A stretch of 62,820 bases of DNA, filler included, from Stramenopiles sp. TOSAG23-3 (taxonomy: Eukaryota): the NCBI GenBank assembly GCA_900128585.1. It is 34 parts of 34 records of this genome, joined end to end, with 100 filler letters (N's around TTAATTAATTAA, not from the genome) between each part and the next. Parts side by side here need not be neighbours in the genome. Positions count along the whole stretch, not along the records: positions 33,411 to 35,159 come from LT645445.1; 33 more parts are not named here. One strand, written 5' to 3'. A program made the translations under genes and the position numbers. Position 1 is the first letter of the stretch. Each line of letters opens with the position of its first letter. The notes beneath the pieces were generated by a model, which was given only the letters and a program-made list of their open reading frames with translations, had not been told where the DNA came from and made no database searches. Below, in pieces: positions 5,759 to 49,202 of the stretch.

Positions 5759-7346
5759 ATGTCGAGACGAAACTATGGAAGAGTAAAGTCAAGGATTGCC
5801 CAAGGGCACCAGGTAGAGTCAAAAAAATCGAAAGAAAAGAAATGGAAAAGGAAGTCGTTGATCAAAATGAAAATGCGAGACGAGGAAATGAAGTCGGATG
5901 GAGCTTCCCAGGGCTCCTCGTATAAAGTTGAGCCCAATGTCAAGGAGGCGGTGCGGCAGTTTTTGCACGCGTTGGAACAACGAAAGTCATTGTACGGACA
6001 CAATATCGACGTCAACGACTTGACATCAGTCTTCTTGGCCTTTGATCGTGATGGGGAAGGTACGCTGGACGCCACAGAGTTCGAAGAAGGTTTGAAACGG
6101 CTCGGCGCGAACATCCCATTGGCACATTTAAACGCCATCTACGCAACGCTGGGACAGGACAGGAGCCAAGACATCCAATACAGCAAGTTTGCCAAGCTTG
6201 TCCAGACTGTAAAAGCTGAAATCGACGCGGAGGTGACCCTCAGAAGCGACTACCGCGGGGTGTTCGCCGGGGAACGGTCAAGCGGGCGCAAATGGCAAGT
6301 CCTGTTCACCCCACCTCCGGCCCTCTCATTTGGCTTAGCAAAACCCAAGCCCATGTTTGTCGGGCACTTCGACGACGAGGTAGCCGCGGCGATGGCATAC
6401 GACCGGACTGTCGTCGAGCGGTTGGGCCCAATCGACGGGGCCGATTACGTCAACTTTCGGGAGTCTGTGACGAGAGACTGGACGACCGAGGAGAACTTGA
6501 AGATGGAGCGAGAGCGCGACCGGCGCCGAAAAGCAATCGAACGATCAAAGGGGGCCGTGCTGTTTGCCGTCGGGAAAGCCATTGCGTCGAACAGGACGCT
6601 GTATGGCCATACACTGAACAATGTGCGCGAGATGTTCACGACGATTGACGCCGACGGTTCCGGGTCAATTGACGCCAGCGAGCTTGGCGAAGCCCTGGAA
6701 AGGCTAGGGTTGAATTTGTCGAAGAAGCAAATCAGTGACTTAGTAAACCTGATGGACATCGATCAGAATGGCTGCATTGACTTTGAAGAGTTCGCAACTG
6801 CAATGCGCCAAGGAAAGCGAGAGTACGCAGATTCCCTGAAACGGCTTCGTGGGACCAGTGTACAAAGTTTGTTGAAGAAAAAGAAGCGGCTCCTGAAGTC
6901 GCCGGCCACGCGCACGGAGCGTCTCAATGGTTGGAACAATTCGACGAGGGTGCCCTTAGATGTTGAATGGAGCGAACTTGCCTTGCCCCTGTCCAACTTG
7001 GTGCAGTCTGATGGGACAATAATTAGGCCAAACAGCAAAAACCAGCCCTCGTCGCCCTTGGACGCTACTGCCAAGGCCCGAACGACGCCACGCCCACCGT
7101 CGTCTCGCCGGAAACAATCTAGTCTCAAGAGCAACAGGCGCCGCCCACAAACTTCCCCCAACTTGTCTCGAAGAAACCAGTCTCCGGCTATGGTGCCCGT
7201 TTCCCCGATGAGTGGCAGCCGCACGCGACCATCATCTCCTGAGTGGAACCACCGTTTCAGCGCGAGGGATGTGACGGATCCCGGCTTTGTAACTGGCGAC
7301 GAGACGCTGTTGCTGAGCCTCAGTCCGAGCTTGCAGCAGAACATGA
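5759..7346 (+). CDS. EF-hand protein with embedded AP2-like domain (3' truncated)
   Basis: EF loops DRDGEGTLDATEF, DADGSGSIDASEL, DIDQNGCIDFEEF. AP2 signature YRGV...KW...VGHFDDEVAAAMAYD...NF at about 6245-6457. Confidence 0.8.
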
Positions 7347-7446
7347 NNNNNNNNNNNNNNNNNNNNNNNNNNNNNNNNNNNNNNNNNNNNTTAATTAATT
7401 AANNNNNNNNNNNNNNNNNNNNNNNNNNNNNNNNNNNNNNNNNNNN

Positions 7447-9203
7447 TGTACGTTCTGTAAATTATTATCCATGCCATGGACTCTTCGCTGAAGCAGTGAA
7501 TCTGTACTGGCATCGTGCAGAGCATAATTAAATTTCCAGGTCCGTGCAGCATTGTAAACCACTGGATATTGCATTTCTGCAGAAATTTTTATATTCTTCG
7601 TGACAAAAAACGGTTTTGCGTCTCCCTCGATAATTTTTGATATATTGCCATAAGAGCCGTTACGACCTCCAACGTAGATCTCGGCGTTCTTGGCGTCAAT
7701 GTGTACTTTAGATTCGCATCCTGACTCATCTACAGCGTAATAGGGCATTTCATAAGTGATTCTAGAACCTTCTTGAAGAACAATTTCGACCCAATTTAAT
7801 TCTTTCCCGGTAGCAATCGCTTCGCCCAATGGACCGCTTTTGAGTTGTTTCATAGTAATACTTTCTTTCACGGAGTTGCGCTTTCTTCCCGTGCGCTTCT
7901 TGATTGAACTGCCATTAAGATGTTTGCCATCCTCATATGGCCTAGAAGAAGGACCTGTTGTTGATAAGGGGACCATTTCGATACCGCTACCCGGCTGTGA
8001 CTCAGAGAGTCTAGCACTGTCGGAGCTAACTGGCTTTGTGTCATCAGTTTTTGTGCCCTTGTCTGGAGAGCGAGTTAACTTTTCACCCGGTTCATTTATA
8101 TCAAGTGACCTTGGTCCACCAGCCAAATCATGAAGACTCTGCTTTCGATACGGAACTCGTATTGTTGACTTGTAGTGAAAATAAAACTCTATTTTAAGAG
8201 AGGTGTTTTGCCTATAGTCGCCATGACTTGGCACGTAGCGAAGTAAATCTTGATAGTTAGTCGGAAAAAAATGTTCCATAAAAAGGACCCTTTGTCTATC
8301 TGCCCACGCCCCGTAAGAAAACAACGCACCATTCCCTTCTCCAGATATATCAACTTCAATTTTATGAAGTGGTGCCGGCAAATTTTTCGTAGAATACTTC
8401 AACAAAATGTGCCGATTTTGCATGGTGTCGTCTTCGCGCGTAAATCCAGTGTAATAGTTGTCCTCGTAACCTTCGGGGTCCGGCTCACCATCCCATATAC
8501 CCGGATATTCTTCTAAAGTATTGCTTTTGTTCACATGTTTGCCATACGTATTTTCTACGTCACTGCTTGCGTTTCGTGGGTTGTCATTTGTGCTACTGGT
8601 TGATTTGGCTGCCAGCATAACAAAACCTGGATGGTCAAATATATGTTTAATCGTAAGCCGAGAACATTGAAACAACTGTGGCTCTACTTTTCTTCCCTTC
8701 GTACCGTTATTTAGTCTAAAGCGAGACTGACTCCGAGTTGATTTTGCGTATGTGGCTGTGCCATTGCCCACTTGATTTTCCATCGCCGCTGCATACTCTT
8801 CGTCTGCACCGCTAGCGATGCGCCTATCATTTACGTTGTAACCGCCTTGTTTCAATCGGAATGTGCGCTTTTGTTCCTCTTCTGCGTCAATAATATTTTC
8901 GTATTCACTATTGGGTAACATTTCTTCAATCTCATGGACGTCCATCAGGTCTTCGTCGATGTTCCCGTGTATGTCTAAAACTACATGGCTTTGTTTTTCC
9001 AACTTTTGGGGCTCACCGTTTTCTTCCGGTTCATTTTCAGCGTCAGAATCATTTTCAGAATCTGAAGATGAAAGATTGTCCTTTGCCTCCCTTCTTCCAT
9101 CACCAGAGGCTTGATCCGGCGATGTTTTCCGTGCATTGTGAACATGCTCTCTGCCAACAATATCTACTAAATTATCGGCAACAATGTCTGTTGCATCTTT
9201 CAT
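7447..9203 (-). CDS. BLTP1: Bridge-like lipid transfer protein 1 (KIAA1109/Csf1/Tweek family), internal fragment
   Basis: YGAWADRQRVLFMEHFFPTNY matches the conserved YGPWADRQR...FFPxxY motif; later YP..YNA.RTW.F. Confidence 0.75.
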
Positions 9204-24153: not shown

Positions 24154-25791
24154 GGGCACCTCTTTGACAGCGGCTTTATTAACAAGACCCTGGACATAAT
24201 TGAGGCCGATGGGGGCGAGTTCTACCTTGTCGAAATGGATGTTCGACCAAACAGCGAAATGGAGTTCAAAAGTAGCGCAGACATTCAGATAACGATGCCC
24301 GACGGGAGGAACGGCGTCAACGACGTCCTGAAGAAGCTCAATGCCCTCGCTCTGGTCGACCCAACCGCGGAAGCCATGATAACTGAGATGCCGTTCGAGT
24401 ATTGCAGCGGAGACTATTCGAAAACATTGCACGGGGGTGCGCTGCAGACAGAGAAAATTTTCAAAGACCCGCCGTCCATGACGTTTGGGACGAACCCCTT
24501 AGATGCCCGAAAGAAAGTCCTGATCCTTGGGGCCGGCCTTGTGTCCGCCCCCGCCGTGGAGTATTTGTCCCGGAAGAACTTGGTCACGGTCGTCTCCGGC
24601 ATTGAGGGTGAAGCGTCCGGCCTGGTGTCTAAAGTAGGAAGGAACGATGTCAATGCTGAAACTGTGGACGTCTCCCAAGACTCGGGGAGAATTATGGAGT
24701 TGGTGGAAAGCAGCGACGTCGTCCTTAGTCTGCTCCCCGCGCCAATGCACGTCCCCGTTGCAAAGATGTGCATTGGTTCCAAAACGCCCCTGGTCACCGC
24801 CAGTTACGTGAGCGAAGAAATGCAGTCGCTGGACGAGGAGGCAAAGAATGCGAGCATTCCAATCTTGTGCGAAATGGGGTTGGACCCAGGAATGGATCAC
24901 ATGAGCGCGATGAAAATTATTGACGAAGTGCAGGAAGACGGAGGGTATATCAAGTCCTTCTCTTCGCTCTGCGGCGGTTTGCCTGCGCCTGAGGCCGCAA
25001 ACAACCCCCTGCGTTACAAGTTTAGCTGGAGCCCGAGGGGGGTGATTACAGCCGCTCAAAACAACGCTCGCTACTTGCAGGAGGGGAACGTCGTAGAGGT
25101 CGATGGGCAAGATTTATTGCGCAGTGCCGAAGTGGCAGACGTGGTTCCAACGCTCTCCCTAGAGCAGCTCCCAAACCGGGACTCGATGCCCTATGGGGAC
25201 ATATACGGTATTTCCAGCGCGGATACCGTGTACCGTGGAACGCTACGGTACGCTGGTTGGTCCAGCATTATGTATGATTTTAAGAAAAACGGACTTTTGG
25301 AGATGGACCAGACCCTCCCAGAACACGCTCGTACGTGGAAAGACGTTATGGAATCCTTAAAAATCAGTGACGCGACCGTTGACACCAAAACGCACGAGTG
25401 CTTGTCGTGGCTTGGCGCGATGAACGAAGAGTTGAGCGACGACGCGCTTTCTCAGCCGTCTATCGGGGACGCATTTTGCTCCCTTCTGCAGGATAAGCTG
25501 GAGTTTGGATCCACTGAGCGCGACATGGTCCTGATGAGGCATGATTTTGAAGTAACGTACGACGATGGGCGTGCCGCGGAAAGAAAATCTTCTCTCCTGC
25601 TCGACTATGGTGACCCGAATGGGGACAGTTCTATGGCTCGCACGGTGGGACTTACTATCGCTATCGGCGCACAGCTTGTCCTGGACGGTGGCGTCAGCTC
25701 TTACGGTGTGCTACTCCCAACCACCCCTGACATTTATATCCCTTCCTTGAGCATGCTAAAGCGCGAAGGCCTGGATTTTCTCGAGTCTTAA
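24154..25791 (+). CDS. AASS: Bifunctional lysine-ketoglutarate reductase/saccharopine dehydrogenase: interdomain and SDH part (5' partial)
   Basis: GHLFDSGFINKTLDIIE interdomain at contig start; ILGAG, TASY, EMGLDPGMDH, CGGLPAPEAANNPL.YKFSWSP, RGTLRY. Confidence 0.93.
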   Translation, partial: GHLFDSGFINKTLDIIEADGGEFYLVEMDVRPNSEMEFKSSADIQITMPDGRNGVNDVLKKLNALALVDPTAEAMITEMPFEYCSGDYSKTLHGGALQTEKIFKDPPSMTFGTNPLDARKKVLILGAGLVSAPAVEYLSRKNLVTVVSGIEGEASGLVSKVGRNDVNAETVDVSQDSGRIMELVESSDVVLSLLPAPMHVPVAKMCIGSKTPLVTASYVSEEMQSLDEEAKNASIPILCEMGLDPGMDHMSAMKIIDEVQEDGGYIKSFSSLCGGLPAPEAANNPLRYKFSWSPRGVITAAQNNARYLQEGNVVEVDGQDLLRSAEVADVVPTLSLEQLPNRDSMPYGDIYGISSADTVYRGTLRYAGWSSIMYDFKKNGLLEMDQTLPEHARTWKDVMESLKISDATVDTKTHECLSWLGAMNEELSDDALSQPSIGDAFCSLLQDKLEFGSTERDMVLMRHDFEVTYDDGRAAERKSSLLLDYGDPNGDSSMARTVGLTIAIGAQLVLDGGVSSYGVLLPTTPDIYIPSLSMLKREGLDFLES

Positions 25792-31631: not shown

Positions 31632-33310
31632 ATGAAGACCTGTGCCAAATGCAAACAAAGCAAAGAACGCACGGAGTTTCACAAGGCTACTGGACGAGGA
31701 GATGGACTTAAACACCAATGCAAAGTGTGTAGGAATGCATCGTCTAGAAAGTGGAAACAAATCAAGCGTGAGAAATTAAAGAAGATTCGTGACAATGAGA
31801 TTCGGAAACCAAGATTCGTAACCCAATATGTCGATAAACCGCTGAGCGTAGAGCAAATTGAACGCCTTAAAAGTAGGGTGGTTAAATGTGCTGGCAGAAG
31901 AAAGCATTGTTGTCATCGCCCAAAGAAATTTGGAAAATTTGAAAAAATTTGGGCACATAATCTTGCAGCACTCGAAGCGTGGAAAAACAAGAACGGCAAA
32001 GGGCTGGATCCGGAACCCTCGTGTGTCATACCACAAGGCGAAGGGAAGAAACCTCTCATGTTGGGACGTTGGTGCGATTACCAAAGAAGTAGATACAGAA
32101 ATACCATGAAGGGCCCTAATGAGAAAAAACTAGCCTGTGGATATCTGAGCGCAGAAAGAATTGAACGCCTTGAACGTATTGGGTTTAATTGGGTCGACAA
32201 GAATCTCCTTTGGAAAAAGGTTTGGGAACATAATCTTGCAGCACTCGAAGCGTGGAAAAACGAGAACGGCAAAGAGCTGGATCCGGAACCCTCGTGTGTC
32301 ATACCACAAGGCGAAGGGAAGAAACCTCTCATGTTGGGACGTTGGTGCGATGGTCAAAGAAGGAAATACAGAAATACCAAGAAGGGCCCTAATGAGAAAA
32401 AACTTACCTGTGGATATCTGAGCGAAGAAAGAATTGAACGCCTTGAACGTATTGGGTTTAAATGGCGCAGAATCTTCGAAGAGCAGAAATCTCGATCTCG
32501 TTCAAAGTATCACAGTTGGGAACGCGGGTTTGCAGCACTCAAAGCATGGAAAAAGGAGCACGGCCAAGACCACGCGCACGGCCACGACGCGCAATGGTGT
32601 GGAAAGAACAAAAATGGTGTCAATTTAGGAAAATGGGTCCTTCGCCAAAGATGGAAATATGCATATGCCACGCGGAACCCTGTTGAGATACATAAAAATT
32701 ATCCACCACATACTGCAGAACAAATTGAACGCCTTAACAGTATTGGGTTTCATTGGACTTGGCATGCCTTGAAGATATCTTGGGAAAAATATTTTGCGGC
32801 ACTCGAAGCATGGAAAAAGGAGAACGGCCAAGGTAGGGACCCACCATCGAAATTGATCATACCACGAGGTGAAGGGGGGGGGCATCTTAATTTGGGACAA
32901 TGGTGCAGTAGACAAAGACAAACATATACAAATACCATGAGGAGCCCTAATGAGAGAAAACCAATTGGAACTCTGAGCGCAGAACAAATTGAACGCCTTG
33001 AACGTATTGGGTTTCAATGGCGCATTGTTCAATGGCGCAGCGCTCGTTCAAAGAAGCGGGACGAAGCTTGGGAACGTAACCTTGCAGCACTCGTAGCGTG
33101 GAAAAACGAGAACGGCAAAGGGCTGTGTCCGAAACAATGGGGGGGGAAGCATTATAAGTTAGGAAAATGGTGCAGACGCCAAAGACAAAAATATATAAAT
33201 ACCATGAGGAGCCCTAATGAAAGAAAACCAACTGGAACTCTGAGGGCAGAACAAATTGAACGCCTTGAACATATTGGGTTTCAATGGGAAGTTACAACTG
33301 GGTCATCGTC
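31632..33310 (+). CDS. Zinc finger plus five helicase-associated (HA) domains (3' truncated)
   Basis: KTCAKC..K...F...DG....CKVC, then five W...AL.AWK..NG...LG.W...QR...E.IERL..IGF repeats; first two are near-identical 273-bp units. Confidence 0.88.
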
Positions 33311-33901
33311 NNNNNNNNNNNNNNNNNNNNNNNNNNNNNNNNNNNNNNNNNNNNTTAATTAATTAANNNNNNNNNNNNNNNNNNNNNNNNNNNNNNNNNN
33401 NNNNNNNNNNATCCCAATACTCAACTTTTCTTAATCTAAAATTTTATTCTGGTGCTTGCTTTCCAGTCTCATGCACTTGGTCTTTCACCTCCAGAAAGGA
33501 ATTGTGCTGAAAATGTGTATTTCTCCCGTTTCTTGCATTTAGAAATTTAGTAGAAAGTAAGAGTATTCACACTCTTCATGCAAGCGTTTGATCAATTTTT
33601 AAGGTCCGTTTGAGTACCTTGAACCTGTCATTTGATAGGAAACGATCAATATTACAATACAATATTTCCTAACAATATATAACCAGCACAACCTGAATAT
33701 TTATCTCCATTGATCGCCAGCCGGCTACTCTTTCCAAGAGATCACAGCACCGGGAACAGATTTTTCTTTCTGTGGTGGCTTTCTGTTCTCGATCGTGTGT
33801 GGTAGCTTTCTATTCAAATTTTATTCATATTATATATACTGTAAAATCCTATCTACATACAACAAGAACACATCGTAGCAGAGGGTCCTTCCCAATGCTC
33901 C

Positions 33902-34120
33902 TCCGATGTAGTGTAGTGTAAGTTTAATACAATTACAGCGCTTTACATAGGACAATTTCTAACATAAATCAATTCAACAATTACAGTGGTCAGCATTTCT
34001 GCCTTTCACGCAGGAAAGTACGTATAATAACCGTCAGAGCAGGATTTCTAAAAAGAATCATCTCTAACAACAATTCCCCCATCAAATAAAATAGCCCGGG
34101 TTCGAATCCCGGCATCGGAA
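33902..34120 (+). tRNA. tRNA-Glu(TTC) split by two GT-AG introns; exons 33902-33917, 33987-34017, 34095-34120
   Basis: Joined exons give 73 nt: acceptor TCCGATG/CATCGGA, D-arm GTGT-AGTTGGTCA-GCAT, anticodon arm TCTGC-CTTTCAC-GCAGG, variable AAAC, T-arm CCGGG-TTCGAAT-CCCGG. T-run follows at 34131. Confidence 0.9.
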
Positions 34121-34593
34121 AAATCCTTAATTTTTTTCTTTTTGCAATGCTATTCCGATGGTATAAATTCATATTTTAAGGCCACTACACGAAAGAAGTA
34201 CTAAATTAGTAGTGTAATATACGTAGATAGGTAATAAAATACACCCTACCGTCAATTAATCGTAGTGTAATGTATTTTAGATAGGGAGAATGCTGTATTT
34301 ATTTTATTGATTCTTCACTATTCACTATTTCCTGCACCCAACACTTGGATTAAGGTCTCGATATTTTTTTCAGGTTAATCAATTGATTTTTTAAAATCTC
34401 AATGCTCTGTGGTGTGTATATATTCGTTTACGGCAAAAGTACTTCATGAGAATACACTCTGGATTTCTCATTCCTATGCTGTGCCTACCTTACCTGAACT
34501 ATATAGTATATATAGTTAAAATTTCGACGCTATTTCAATAGTAAACGCTACATACTGTGCTAGCACAGTGTGTCAGTTAGGTTAACTCCTAAC

Positions 34594-34876
34594 TCCCATG
34601 TAGTGTAGTGTAAGTTTAATACAATTACAGCTTTACATAGGACAATTTCTAACATAAAATAATTCAAAAATTACAGTGGTCAGCATTTCTGCCTCTCACG
34701 CAGGAGAGTACGTATACATAAGCATCAGAGCAGGTAAAGGACCATCTCTAACAATCATCCCCCCTATCAAATAAAATAGCCCGGGTTCGGTAAGTACAGT
34801 AAAGAAAAAGACTCCTATTAAGCATTCTCTAACGAAAAACCGTATCTTCCATAATAACAGAATCCCGGCATGGGAA
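34594..34876 (+). tRNA. tRNA-Glu(CTC) split by three GT-AG introns; exons 34594-34609, 34677-34707, 34780-34789, 34861-34876
   Basis: Joined exons give 73 nt: acceptor TCCCATG/CATGGGA, anticodon loop CTCTCAC, variable AGAC, T-loop TTCG|AAT restored only after removing intron 34790-34860. T-run follows at 34883. Confidence 0.9.
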
Positions 34877-35259
34877 CCTTAATTTTTGTTTTTGCCTCTA
34901 AACTATTTTCCCATTCACCCACACTGAGAATAAGGTAGGCACATCGTATACATTATGAGTATGTACTTTCGTAGTGTAATGTATTTAACTGGACATCTCT
35001 CCATCCATCCATTTCCAAATTATATCGAATTTTTTTTCTTTCCGCTAGTCTGTTCCTGTTATTCTCTTCTCCGAGGAGGGTGGTTTCCTCTTCTTCTTCC
35101 TTCTTCTTTTTTTTCTTCTTTCTTCTTTCTTCTTCTTCCTTCTTCCTTCTTCTTTCTTCNNNNNNNNNNNNNNNNNNNNNNNNNNNNNNNNNNNNNNNNN
35201 NNNTTAATTAATTAANNNNNNNNNNNNNNNNNNNNNNNNNNNNNNNNNNNNNNNNNNNN

Positions 35260-48182: not shown

Positions 48183-49202
48183 CTGCTCTTCTCCAGCACC
48201 GCTTGGAGTGCATCGATGTACTTCACTGCTAACAAGTACTCGGTCGGGTTCTCCCCGCTGGAGACGACCGCGCGAGCGATTTCTTTCACGCTCTTGGCCT
48301 CTGCGCCAGCCTTGTTGATAATTGCCTGGGCGTCACCCCTTGCCCTTGAAACGACCTGCTGCAGCGCCCCCCGGGCTTCCGTTACAATTTTGTCCCTCTC
48401 GCCCTCTGCCAGTACCACTGTCTTTTGCTTTGTGGTTTTGGCCTGGATTATGATCTCTTTGTTCTGCAACTCGGCCTGTTTCCGTTTCGCCAAAACGTCT
48501 TTCAACTGCCTTGCCTCGACGTGTTGAATCCCCACCTTCTCTACCGTCACGCCCCAGCGCATGGCGATTTGGTTCAGGGAGTACTGGATACCCGTCAAGG
48601 CGGTCGTGTCGTCGACGATGGAGTCCACGTCCAGGGTACCGGCTACGTTTCTTATTTGTGCCTGGAGCAACTTCGACAGCATGTAAGGAAGGTTTTGCAC
48701 GCCGTAAATCATGACCTCCGGCTTTGTTACTTTGTAGTTGATCACAGCGTCCAACGTAACGCGAGCGTTGTCCCTACTGATAACGTCCTGCTTGGGAAAG
48801 TCCATGACTTCACTCTTTGTGAGAATAATGTGATGGTTGATCTGTTCTACTGCCTTTACCTGGCCGTTCTGGGTGATGTAATACTTCCACCTGTGTGTGA
48901 TTTAAAAAAAAAGAGCGAAAAAGTTGAGATTGGTTAGTTACTTCGTACAAGGCAACGGTGGGAGGGGGGGGGAAGGGGACTTACGTGTAAGTTTTCGGCT
49001 GGTAAAACGGCCATGGGACAAAGTGCGGTCCGGAGTGAAGGACCTTTGCAAAGCGCCCAAAAAACTCAATGACTACTGTTTCTTTCTCTTTAATGAAGTA
49101 TATCGATTTGTACGTGCAGTAGACGAAGAGGAGAGCGACCAACACGGCAATGATTGGGCCGACAACTCCGTCTCCACCTTCTGCTTGTAAAAGGACGAGC
49201 AT
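48183..49202 (-). CDS. SPFH/band-7 (stomatin-like) protein with one intron at 48891-48984 (3' truncated)
   Basis: TM, then VIE.FGRF...L.SG.HF..P and DFPKQDVISRDNA.V.LDAV. The GTAAGT...ACTAAC...CAG intron joins the two ORFs in frame (PKTYT/WKYY). Confidence 0.9.

Follow-up and report, generated by a model that had tools for sequence, protein, structure and literature searches.

Can a nuclear tRNA gene be transcribed by RNA polymerase III (Pol III) and have its introns removed by the spliceosome? The question is raised by two tRNA-Glu loci in the window, that is, the whole 62,820-nt stretch of DNA from Stramenopiles sp. TOSAG23-3 (assembly GCA_900128585.1) that was analyzed; both lie in the part derived from LT645445.1. 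Judged from the DNA, the best explanation, which we regard as probable taken as a whole, is that both are functional nuclear genes of a marine stramenopile, one for tRNA-Glu(UUC) and one for tRNA-Glu(CUC), with U2-type spliceosomal introns. Transcription by Pol III followed by spliceosomal splicing is the likely route to the mature tRNAs. Because the introns are of mRNA style and poor in T-runs, and because similar genes occur in fungi, the mRNA splicing machinery probably helps to make some tRNAs.

Anatomy of the two interrupted genes

The tRNA-Glu(UUC) gene (gene 1; 33902-34120, + strand) comprises three exons (33902-33917, 33987-34017 and 34095-34120), the final base being the discriminator A, and in silico removal of its introns yields a 73-nt cloverleaf with a 7-bp acceptor stem as identified by ARAGORN. 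Intron 1 (33918-33986; 69 nt) interrupts the D-loop after tRNA nucleotide 16 and has the form GTAAGT..TTTCTAAC..CAG. Intron 2 (34018-34094; 77 nt) lies in the variable region and has the form GTACGT..TCTCTAAC..TAG, with a longest A-run of 5. The D-loop intron begins with G, so that the A-box match is mostly kept in the DNA. The T-arm sequence GGTTCGAATCC (34099-34109) is intact and stands ~180 nt 3' of the A-box region because the introns intervene; it corresponds to the B-box consensus. An oligo-T pair, T7 (34131-34137) and T5 (34139-34143) separated by a C, follows the gene and forms a putative Pol III terminator (34131-34143). The T7 run begins 11 nt past the discriminator and is directly preceded by CCTTAA (34125-34130).

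The tRNA-Glu(CUC) gene (gene 2; 34594-34876, + strand) is divided into four exons (34594-34609, 34677-34707, 34780-34789 and 34861-34876), the third of which is a micro-exon of 10 nt. In silico removal of its three introns again gives a complete cloverleaf with a 7-bp acceptor stem (ARAGORN). Intron 1 (34610-34676; 67 nt, D-loop) is a paralogue of gene 1 intron 1 with 93% identity, and intron 2 (34708-34779; 72 nt, variable region) is a paralogue of gene 1 intron 2. Intron 3 (34790-34860; 71 nt), of the form GTAAGT..TCTCTAAC..CAG, is inserted in the T-loop after TTCG, where it splits the B-box sequence; it is missing from gene 1 and from one relative's copy. A motif search of this intron and of the other AT-rich-group introns returned no substitute B-box-like motif, so that TFIIIC-type promoter recognition is unexplained for gene 2. 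The gene is followed at 34883-34893 by two T5 runs (34883-34887 and 34889-34893) separated by a G, the first of which begins 7 nt past the discriminator, directly after CCTTAA (34877-34882).

The initial annotation had also described TATA-like tracts upstream of both genes. These are present on the + strand, as a TATATATA tract of presumed function 71 nt 5' of the gene 1 mature end (33831-33838), which aligns with the gene 2 copy of TATATATA, and as TATATA/TATATATA tracts 87-94 nt 5' of the gene 2 mature end (34500-34514). They lie farther upstream than had been implied and, at 71-94 nt rather than ~30 nt, too far for classical Pol III TATA boxes.

The five introns measure 67-77 nt. The 5' splice site is GTAAGT in three and GTACGT in two, which agrees with GTRNGT, and this donor was not imposed by the search. 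A CTAAC box is found 22-27 nt 5' of the terminal CAG or TAG in all five, and the same box is found in the sole convincing mRNA intron of the window (48891-48984, - strand; GTAAGT..AACTAAC..CAG). The stretch between branch point and AG is A/C-rich, as initially described, and the usual U-rich tract is not present: these segments have A.47 and T.23 in the tRNA introns vs A.26 and T.35 in predicted mRNA introns. A U-rich (pyrimidine) tract before the 3' splice site is usual, although not universal, in U2-type introns. The insertion sites (D-loop after nucleotide 16, variable region and T-loop) do not include the canonical 37/38 position. In the unspliced window DNA, neither ARAGORN nor Rfam (E<=10) found a tRNA for either gene. 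Genes of this design would escape tRNAscan-type and Rfam searches, and the tRNA sets of the genomes that carry them would therefore be under-annotated.

At acceptor pair 4:69, gene 1 has G:C where gene 2 has C:G, and this compensatory change connects exons that are >200 nt apart. The exons are near-invariant, whereas the introns differ by substitutions and indels, both between the paralogues and in relatives. These features stand against the suggestion that the loci are decaying tRNA pseudogenes, their intron-like insertions unspliced and functional tRNA-Glu supplied by other, uninterrupted genes, as does the retention of 5' splice-site, branch and 3' splice-site signals with exact boundaries in 5/5 insertions. 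The design also recurs in 19/24 loci of other organisms, where exons and terminators are conserved. Decay of this kind would fit the existence of relatives with copies that miss single introns and the lack of spliced RNA among the RNA-library contigs described below; taking both sides together, it is very unlikely.

A mobile-intron search found no further copy of any of the five introns within the window, and the idea that they are introners (repeated mobile introns) was dropped for that reason. Exact-sequence matching of five window ORFs returned no match in the sequence collection searched, and a protein comparison of the saccharopine dehydrogenase gave no useful taxonomic signal. A scan of the window for bacterial-type promoters and terminators was set aside as not relevant to a eukaryote.

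T-runs in the window and in related loci

Four or more consecutive T residues terminate Pol III. On the + strand, the 501 nt of the two genes contain no run of T>=4 and eight runs of A>=4, as against 17 T>=4 runs in the 1248 nt of the flanks. The initial annotation had noted that no tRNA intron exceeds T3, that the mRNA intron carries T9 on its sense strand and that both genes are followed by CCTTAA and a T-run, and it had inferred selection against premature termination. Each of the three observations is borne out. The longest T-runs in the introns, in order along the two genes, are 3, 3, 3, 1 and 2, with A-runs of up to 5, and the mRNA intron has both T5 and T9 between its branch point and 3' splice site. 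Taken alone, the absence of T4 from the window introns is not beyond chance given their composition. Composition shuffles leave the five introns T4-free in 33% of trials (P=0.33) and the three independent introns in 53%, the number falling from five to three since introns 1 and 2 of one gene are paralogues of those of the other. As the window holds just one convincing mRNA intron, a comparison between tRNA and mRNA introns is impossible inside it; most candidates that a loose intron pattern coupled with an ORF test returned there were false positives, and stricter rules were used instead.

A metagenome scan extended the sample. Among 24 loci, 19 are tRNA genes with a T-loop intron of this kind, and they derive from Alternaria-like fungi and from stramenopiles other than this one; the pattern had 0 matches in viral contigs. 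Four loci were left out of this count: L001 probably represents an mRNA intron within an ORF, L016 contains no tRNA, and L003 and L014 are tRNA-like with additional GT..AG segments. A tRNA-Gln truncated by its contig end (L019) is not among the 19, but the intron set includes its intron, which was identified by eye. The donor GTA[ACT]GT occurs in 21/21 non-redundant related introns, being imposed by the search pattern for T-loop introns, and the looser rule GT[AG]NGT was imposed for the first intron of tRNA-Pro(CGG) (L020). Several of the related genes also carry an ordinary tRNA intron at 37/38.

A run of T>=5 begins 3-28 nt past the tRNA in 22/22 intron-bearing genes (2 in the window and 20 in the 19 loci), against a background of 1.91 T5+ runs per kb per strand. 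These terminators measure T5-T9, all within 28 nt of the tRNA end, in several unrelated lineages. Yeast terminators lie 5-15 nt past the tRNA, and where the first is weak a second often backs it up (PMC4937561).

The 21 non-redundant tRNA introns (1327 nt) contain one T4, no T5+ and 17 runs of A>=4. Shuffling predicts 4.3 introns with T>=4, of which 1 was observed (P=0.038, n=21), and 1.2 introns with T>=5, of which none was observed (P=0.27, n=21). A comparison set of mRNA introns was predicted at the same loci by an ORF-joining rule, which gave 19 real candidates vs 2 control candidates on reversed sequence; the resulting set (n=17) is small and of mixed organisms. T>=4 occurs in 1/21 tRNA introns vs 9/17 predicted mRNA introns (p=0.0019), or at 0.75 vs 11.25 per kb (p=5e-4). 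Orthologous introns among the 21 are not independent; with the tRNA introns merged into 16 families, the counts become 1/16 vs 9/17 (p=0.0066). At T>=5, the length of the shortest terminator in these genes, the depletion is borderline (0/21 vs 3/17, p=0.08). By composition, the AT-rich (stramenopile-type) group has T>=4 in 0/8 tRNA introns vs 3/4 predicted mRNA introns (p=0.018), with A.47 and T.23 in the former vs A.25 and T.33 in the latter. The fungal-type loci have equal composition in the two kinds of intron (A.29, T.29), and T>=4 occurs in 1/13 vs 6/13.

The fungal-type loci also account for all 8/21 related introns that contain TTCGA, a number that compares with 0.68 expected and that is reached in 0/3000 shuffles. 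In five tRNA-Gly(GCC) loci the B-box-like motif TTCGAT[TC]C (TTCGATTC) is invariant in an otherwise diverged T-loop intron. It is absent from all five window introns.

The lack of T-runs may instead be non-adaptive, reflecting chance together with an A-rich, T-poor sense strand that stems from intron origin or from mutation bias in highly transcribed small genes. The window shuffles, the modest P values of the 21-intron shuffle test and the occurrence of A-runs at the frequency that composition predicts are all consistent with this explanation. Against it, the fungal-type loci differ in T-run content at equal base composition, and the AT-rich-group tRNA introns have a composition opposite to that of the predicted mRNA introns at those loci, as avoidance of U-rich sequence would produce. 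In yeast, Pol III termination is associated with the U density of the nascent transcript (PMC4937561). A purely non-adaptive origin therefore seems unlikely. Selection against premature termination is unprovable from the five window introns, and draws support from the related loci, namely the terminators in all 22 genes, the T>=4 contrast and the fungal B-box-like motif.

Transcription, splicing and natural variants

As a working model, Pol III would transcribe each gene from just 5' of the tRNA to the double oligo-T 7-11 nt behind it. The AT-richness of the ~70-nt introns would come from sense-strand A, not T, with an A/C-rich region replacing the U-rich tract; since the introns hold no T-run long enough for termination, a full-length Pol III precursor is possible. 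The spliceosome would then remove the introns post-transcriptionally, uncoupled from the Pol II CTD, as for the S. pombe U6 precursor, and RNase P, RNase Z and CCA addition would complete the tRNA. What the sequences show directly is the structure of the genes and introns, the T-run counts, the terminators and natural copies differing by entire introns; which polymerase acts, whether the spliceosome is required and in what order the processing steps occur are inferred. The further suggestion that splicing would proceed without a cap does not follow, since in yeast and human cells 5-22% of the pre-tRNAs made by Pol III carry a cap (PMC10275265).

Assembled contigs from several sequencing runs were compared over 33411-35159. 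A contig from run X2 has gene-2-type exons without intron 3, and a joint in run X2 omits exactly 34610-34676 (GT..AG), although in a single contig with only 30 nt on one side. In a contig from run X16, the UUC gene is interrupted at its T-loop site by a GTAAGT intron. Natural copies that lack intron 3 at its exact boundaries thus exist, and copies that likewise lack intron 1 probably do.

Among the RNA-library contigs (runs X15, X16 and X17), which are of low depth, neither a spliced form nor a lariat was found, and the sequence is unspliced only. One contig (33888-34288) extends ~150 nt beyond the gene 1 T-run, and another (34479-34694) begins 115 nt 5' of gene 2, upstream of the TATA tract. 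Carry-over of DNA, read-through by Pol III and transcription by Pol II could each account for such contigs. RNA contigs begin at 33883 and 33888 and end at 34287 and 34288; a structural breakpoint in a DNA run has a loose end at 34285, and this coincidence is why the contig ends were not taken as transcript ends.

The principal mechanistic alternative is transcription by Pol II, either from small units of the genes' own or as part of a longer + strand transcript shared with both neighbour genes. Splicing would be co-transcriptional, RNase P and RNase Z would release the tRNA, and the T-runs would be either Pol II 3'-end elements or ordinary sequence of an AT-rich intergenic region. The unspliced RNA-library contigs, which span gene bodies and flanks, agree with such transcripts, as does the position of the TATA-like tracts, at a spacing that in some organisms is more typical of Pol II. 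The B-box sequence of gene 2 is split, and the spliceosome normally acts on Pol II transcripts (PMC12530127). The contigs, however, do not separate Pol III from Pol II, because in yeast Pol III commonly reads through by 50-200 nt (PMC4937561). The T5-T9 run behind every one of the 22 genes, the depletion of T-runs relative to predicted mRNA introns and the conservation of a B-box-like motif within fungal T-loop introns all argue for Pol III, and AATAAA, which is present within intron 2 of both genes, would be awkward for Pol II. Pol II transcription is accordingly considered doubtful, with a probability somewhat below that of the non-adaptive account of T-run content.

Removal of the introns by a TSEN-type endonuclease and ligase at bulge-helix-bulge motifs, in which the splice sites occupy two 3-nt bulges flanking a 4-bp helix, as in red algae and nucleomorphs, is the least probable explanation: although no other pathway is so far known for non-canonical intron positions in nuclear tRNA genes (PMC3978253), 5/5 introns have GTAAGT or GTACGT, CTAAC 22-27 nt before YAG and lengths of 67-77 nt, much like the window mRNA intron, and in neither precursor does a splice-site pair fall in a bulge-helix-bulge (MFE folds only, a weak test).

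Comparison with known systems

The loci may well represent a class of spliceosome-dependent nuclear tRNA genes that is present in at least two distant lineages, the marine heterotrophic-type stramenopiles and the Pleosporales (e.g. Alternaria relatives). Its members would be transcribed by Pol III, and the rules of that polymerase would have shaped their introns, which have no T-runs and an A/C-rich rather than U-rich 3' region; among the fungi, the B box would have moved into the T-loop intron. Their splicing would be uncoupled from Pol II and would stand upstream of translation, and the presence or absence of introns would reflect ongoing gain or loss in wild populations. If this is true, the spliceosome can routinely handle CTD-independent transcripts that have no cap, or only rarely one, and exons down to 10 nt, and the genes offer a natural system in which splicing can be studied apart from its coupling to Pol II. 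Intron sequence would visibly be shaped by the rules of Pol III termination and promoter recognition, a clean case of selection on intron content, and the marine presence/absence variants would give a view of recent intron gain or loss in an unexpected host gene. The tRNA catalogues of stramenopiles and Dothideomycetes would be incomplete, possibly by entire isoacceptor families. Because the Alternaria-type loci come from culturable fungi, every step can be tested at the bench.

A literature search found no report of spliceosome-type introns in tRNA genes. In the available portions of PMC12530127 and PMC10946435, spliceosomal and tRNA introns are treated as separate systems, the former as a feature of mRNAs and of the other RNAs that Pol II makes, and these portions, together with those of PMC10275265, describe tRNA intron removal by the endonuclease pathway only. 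Like canonical TSEN introns (position 37/38, tRNA ligase), the introns described here lie inside putative Pol III tRNA genes and their removal is needed for function. Unlike them, they occupy D-loop, variable-region and T-loop sites, measure 67-77 nt and have GT..CTAAC..YAG signals.

The non-canonical introns and permuted tRNA genes of Cyanidioschyzon merolae, green picoalgae and nucleomorphs depend on a bulge-helix-bulge motif and the tRNA endonuclease. Nuclear tRNA genes of C. merolae, green picoalgae and nucleomorphs are disrupted at unusual positions and missed by standard finders (PMC3978253), and the window genes share both properties; they differ in having spliceosomal signals and no bulge-helix-bulge in MFE folds.

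Spliceosomal introns also occur in U1, U2 and U5 snRNA and in ascomycete rDNA, the last being a non-Pol II case (PMC5855946). These hosts are structural RNAs, as here, and tRNA is not among them in the available part of that source. Apart from U6, they are Pol II or Pol I transcripts, to which the oligo-T termination constraint does not apply.

The closest parallel is the S. pombe U6 snRNA gene, a Pol III gene whose intron has canonical splice and branch sites and is removed by the spliceosome; U6 genes of other fungi have multiple introns (PMC5855946). Splicing is demonstrated for S. pombe U6 and predicted for the window tRNA introns. The host also differs, being a tRNA with up to three introns per gene and a 10-nt micro-exon. 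As a tRNA is not a spliceosome component, the origin proposed for U6 introns, reverse splicing at the active site, is not obviously applicable. The S. pombe U6 intron holds the B box (Frendewey et al. 1990, cited in PMC5855946); the window T-loop intron, unlike it, has no B-box-like motif, and the fungal T-loop introns with TTCGATTC parallel it. In both systems the gene for a small stable RNA, putatively transcribed by Pol III in the present case, is interrupted by an intron of the mRNA type.

Anatomy and probable function of the split tRNA-Glu genes

Sequence inspection of 33700-35100 revealed a split tRNA in two direct copies. ARAGORN found no tRNA anywhere in the raw window; Rfam, at gathering thresholds, gave no match in the whole window, and none at E ≤ 10 over 33411-35159. 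After in silico removal of 33918-33986 and 34018-34094 (gene 1) and of 34610-34676, 34708-34779 and 34790-34860 (gene 2), ARAGORN returned a 73-nt tRNA-Glu(UUC) (33902-34120, +) and a tRNA-Glu(CUC) (34594-34876, +), both with a complete 7-bp acceptor stem and normal arms. The five introns are 67-77 nt long, start with GTAAGT or GTACGT, end with CAG or TAG and have (T)CTAAC 22-27 nt from the 3' end, the same splice signals as in the mRNA intron at 48891-48984 (-). Both genes have one in the D-loop, following tRNA nucleotide 16, and one in the variable region; gene 2 has a third, which interrupts the T-loop behind TTCG and sets off a 10-nt exon (34780-34789). A splice-aware search across the whole window, with ARAGORN run on each chain of up to four candidate introns, recovered only these two genes. 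The MFE folds of the precursors contain no bulge-helix-bulge at the splice sites, and the acceptor stem still forms in the unspliced molecules.

The mature sequences differ at four positions: the anticodon, one variable-region base and both members of acceptor pair 4:69 (gene 1, G:C; gene 2, C:G). The difference in this pair is a compensatory change across exons separated by more than 200 nt of DNA. Intron 1 (93% identical), intron 2, a TATA-containing upstream stretch and a CCTTAA-oligo-T trailer are also common to both paralogues. Both are, almost certainly, working tRNA-Glu genes that contain spliceosome-type introns.

An identical 18-nt repeat occurs downstream of both genes, ~140 nt after gene 1 (34260-34277) and ~95 nt after gene 2 (34969-34986). 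It is similar to the exon-1/intron-1 junction (GTAGTGTAATGTATTT vs GTAGTGTAGTGTAAGTTT) and may have been left by additional, degenerate gene copies. Genes are dense in the window and introns few, with a single convincing mRNA intron in its 62.8 kb. The protein encoded next to the tRNA genes (31632-33362, +) has five Helicase-associated (HA) repeats, and ankyrin, SWIM, SAP and ApaG-domain ORFs are also present. The nearest Atlas clusters of a saccharopine-dehydrogenase-like ORF (24235-25791, +) are mostly bacterial (Bacteroidota), possibly through gene transfer or merely as feature-space neighbours. At intervals of about 1850 nt the window carries masked blocks (44 N, 12 bases, 44 N), which cut several ORFs.

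Wild relatives and metagenome loci

Close relatives occur in marine metagenomes and metatranscriptomes; four runs were aligned on 33411-35159. Exons are conserved, and introns vary by substitutions and small indels. In a contig from run X2 (labelled 'DNA?'), gene-2-type exon 2, intron 2 and exon 3 are joined directly to exon 4, without intron 3 and with a gene-1-type downstream flank; the same arrangement recurs in a contig from the RNA-library run X17. An X2 joint that omits exactly 34610-34676 (GT..AG) is weak: one contig supports it, and one side of the joint spans 30 nt. A UUC-type gene in a contig from the RNA-library run X16 has a GTAAGT-type T-loop intron after 34104, absent from gene 1 of the window. 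It is thus at the predicted boundaries that natural copies in these runs differ by whole introns.

Intron presence/absence is accompanied by structural polymorphism among the relatives in these three runs (33411-35159), including a variant with 34332-34842 replaced by 11 letters. The UUC/CUC anticodon switch is carried on otherwise near-identical genes. At a loose end of an X2 metagenome contig, a different tRNA 3' end with a Pro-like acceptor is joined to the same CCTTAA/TTAA-oligo-T flank (34125 onward), and this trailer seems common to several tRNA genes of the lineage.

Metagenomes were scanned for T-loops split by a GTA[ACT]GT..CTAAC..AG intron. Intron removal yielded a complete tRNA in 19 of the 24 matching loci, comprising Leu-CAA, His-GTG, Gly-CCC, Gln-TTG, Pro-TGG, Pro-AGG, Pro-CGG, Gly-GCC (seven loci) and Glu-CTC (six). 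An ordinary 37/38 intron is also present in 11 of 20 locus genes. Locus L020 holds two tRNA-Pro genes 300 nt apart (reverse-strand coordinates 7334-8028), one with a single T-loop intron and the other with two extremely A-rich introns (60% A, 17% T, up to A9) around a 14-nt exon; L019 is a tRNA-Gln truncated by the contig end. The matches at L001 and L016 are not tRNAs. L003:2809-2872(-) and L014:4423-4486(-) are tRNA-like, with an Ala-AGC-type anticodon arm bearing a 37/38 insert, a T-loop GT..AG intron and an extra GTAAGC..CTAAC..CAG segment immediately after the T-arm. Neither could be assembled into a complete cloverleaf; they may represent a tRNA-derived element or a tRNA split still further. 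Viral contigs gave no match to the pattern.

By protein neighbours, L008 and its homologues L006, L012, L015 and L022 are Alternaria-like Pleosporales (with an Alternaria dauci protein 93% identical), and L020 falls among stramenopiles. The DDX5-type helicase of the window is closest to stramenopiles (59% to the EukProt entry coded INCI; diatoms 42-47%), and the window has no detectable DNA or protein homology to any locus.

Putative terminators and intron T-runs

The initial annotation, which proposed Pol III transcripts spliced by the spliceosome, listed sequence features that can all be confirmed. The longest intron T-runs are 3, 3, 3, 1 and 2, within its limit of three; the mRNA intron contains the T9 it named and also a T5; and CCTTAA plus a T-run follows both genes (T7 at 34131-34137; T5 at 34883-34887, starting at +7 from the end of gene 2), each backed by a second T5. 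The TATA-like tracts are present (33831-33838 and 34500-34514), 71-94 nt upstream, a distance that counts against the Pol III reading. Runs of T ≥ 4 on the + strand number 17 in 1248 nt of flanks versus 0 in the 501-nt gene body, and the two genes contain eight A ≥ 4 runs. The five introns (356 nt, 26% T) were free of T4 in 33% of shuffled trials, or 53% for three independent introns. The window has only one good mRNA intron for comparison, and the T4 paucity within it could be due to chance.

Across the two window genes and the 20 genes of the 19 loci, a T5-T9 run begins 3-28 nt past the tRNA in 22/22 genes, against a background of 1.91 T5+ runs per kb per strand. In passages of PMC4937561, the main yeast Pol III terminators lie 5-15 nt past the tRNA, a weak first one often has a second behind it, and transcripts commonly read through for 50-200 nt. 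In fungal-type loci, GC nearly always follows the terminator T-run (TTTTTGC).

Collapsing 27 tRNA introns at 85% similarity left 21 (1327 nt), with one T4 (L005), no T5+ and 17 A ≥ 4 runs. Shuffles predict 4.3 introns with T ≥ 4 (1 observed, P = 0.038) and 1.2 with T ≥ 5 (0 observed, P = 0.27). An ORF-joining predictor, applied to window and loci, supplied 17 candidate mRNA introns ≤120 nt (control: 2 candidates on reversed sequence versus 19 real). The comparison suggested genome-wide, made here on window plus loci, held for T ≥ 4 (1/21 tRNA versus 9/17 predicted mRNA introns, Fisher p = 0.0019; 0.75 versus 11.25 per kb, p = 5e-4), also after orthologous introns were collapsed to 16 families (p = 0.0066), and was weak for T ≥ 5 (0/21 versus 3/17, p = 0.08). 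T4 depletion is clear and depletion of T5, the shortest terminator seen, is weak, as measured against an mRNA set that is small, predicted and of mixed organisms. The branch-to-AG region is, as the initial annotation observed, A-rich in tRNA introns; it is T-rich in the predicted mRNA introns.

The favoured explanation, which we consider reasonably probable, is that Pol III transcribes the genes, that selection acts against T-runs inside them and that the spliceosome removes the introns post-transcriptionally. Non-adaptive composition, partly overlapping with it, is an unlikely source of the T-run paucity: composition does differ in the AT-rich group (window, L004, L010, L020; tRNA introns A.47 T.23, predicted mRNA introns A.25 T.33), and in the other loci it is equal, yet T ≥ 4 occurs in 1/13 versus 6/13 introns. 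Transcription by Pol II, the other main rival, is less likely still. No spliced RNA was found among RNA-library contigs covering 33411-35159. These contigs are unspliced and reach into the flanks past the T-runs, a point against the Pol III reading; precursor, read-through or DNA carry-over fit them alike. Absence of a cap, as further proposed, cannot be read from Pol III transcription: passages of PMC10275265 put the capped share of pre-tRNAs in yeast and human at 5-22%.

Possible promoter elements and known systems

An intron in the T-loop interrupts the B-box sequence. Eight of the 21 introns, all from fungal-type loci, carry TTCGA ~23-29 nt from their start (0.68 expected; 0/3000 shuffles reach 8); no such B-box-like motif is present in the five window introns, including the one that splits the B box of gene 2. 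Five tRNA-Gly(GCC) genes (L009:8341-8579(-), L011:3122-3361, L013:991-1230, L017:1228-1472(-), L023:3040-3278(-)) combine a canonical 16-17-nt 37/38 intron with a 52-58-nt T-loop GT..AG intron, in which TTCGAT[TC]C, like the splice signals, is invariant and the remainder has diverged. On this conservation, TTCGAT[TC]C is probably a B-box-like element moved into the intron. Alternatively, the motif is a leftover of T-loop duplication, but its conservation argues for function. A conserved motif, TCCATCAA(ATCACGTGAA), lies 10-45 nt upstream of fungal-type tRNA-Gly/tRNA-Glu genes (the same five loci and L006, L008 and L015) and could be a start-site or promoter element.

Passages of PMC10275265, PMC12530127 and PMC10946435 describe tRNA splicing as endonuclease-based only, and the latter two assign spliceosomal introns to mRNAs and other Pol II transcripts. 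The full-text literature searched, with subscription journals and supplements outside it, held no report of spliceosomal introns in tRNA genes; an earlier report is possible. Culturable fungi allow a direct test of such introns. The documented hosts of spliceosomal introns given in section 14 of PMC5855946 are U6 (Pol III), U1, U2, U5 and ascomycete rDNA, a list without tRNA. According to the title of Frendewey 1990, the S. pombe U6 intron holds a B box, and the fungal-type T-loop introns likewise carry a B-box-like motif. The arrangement is the U6-type situation in tRNA hosts, here in two distant lineages.
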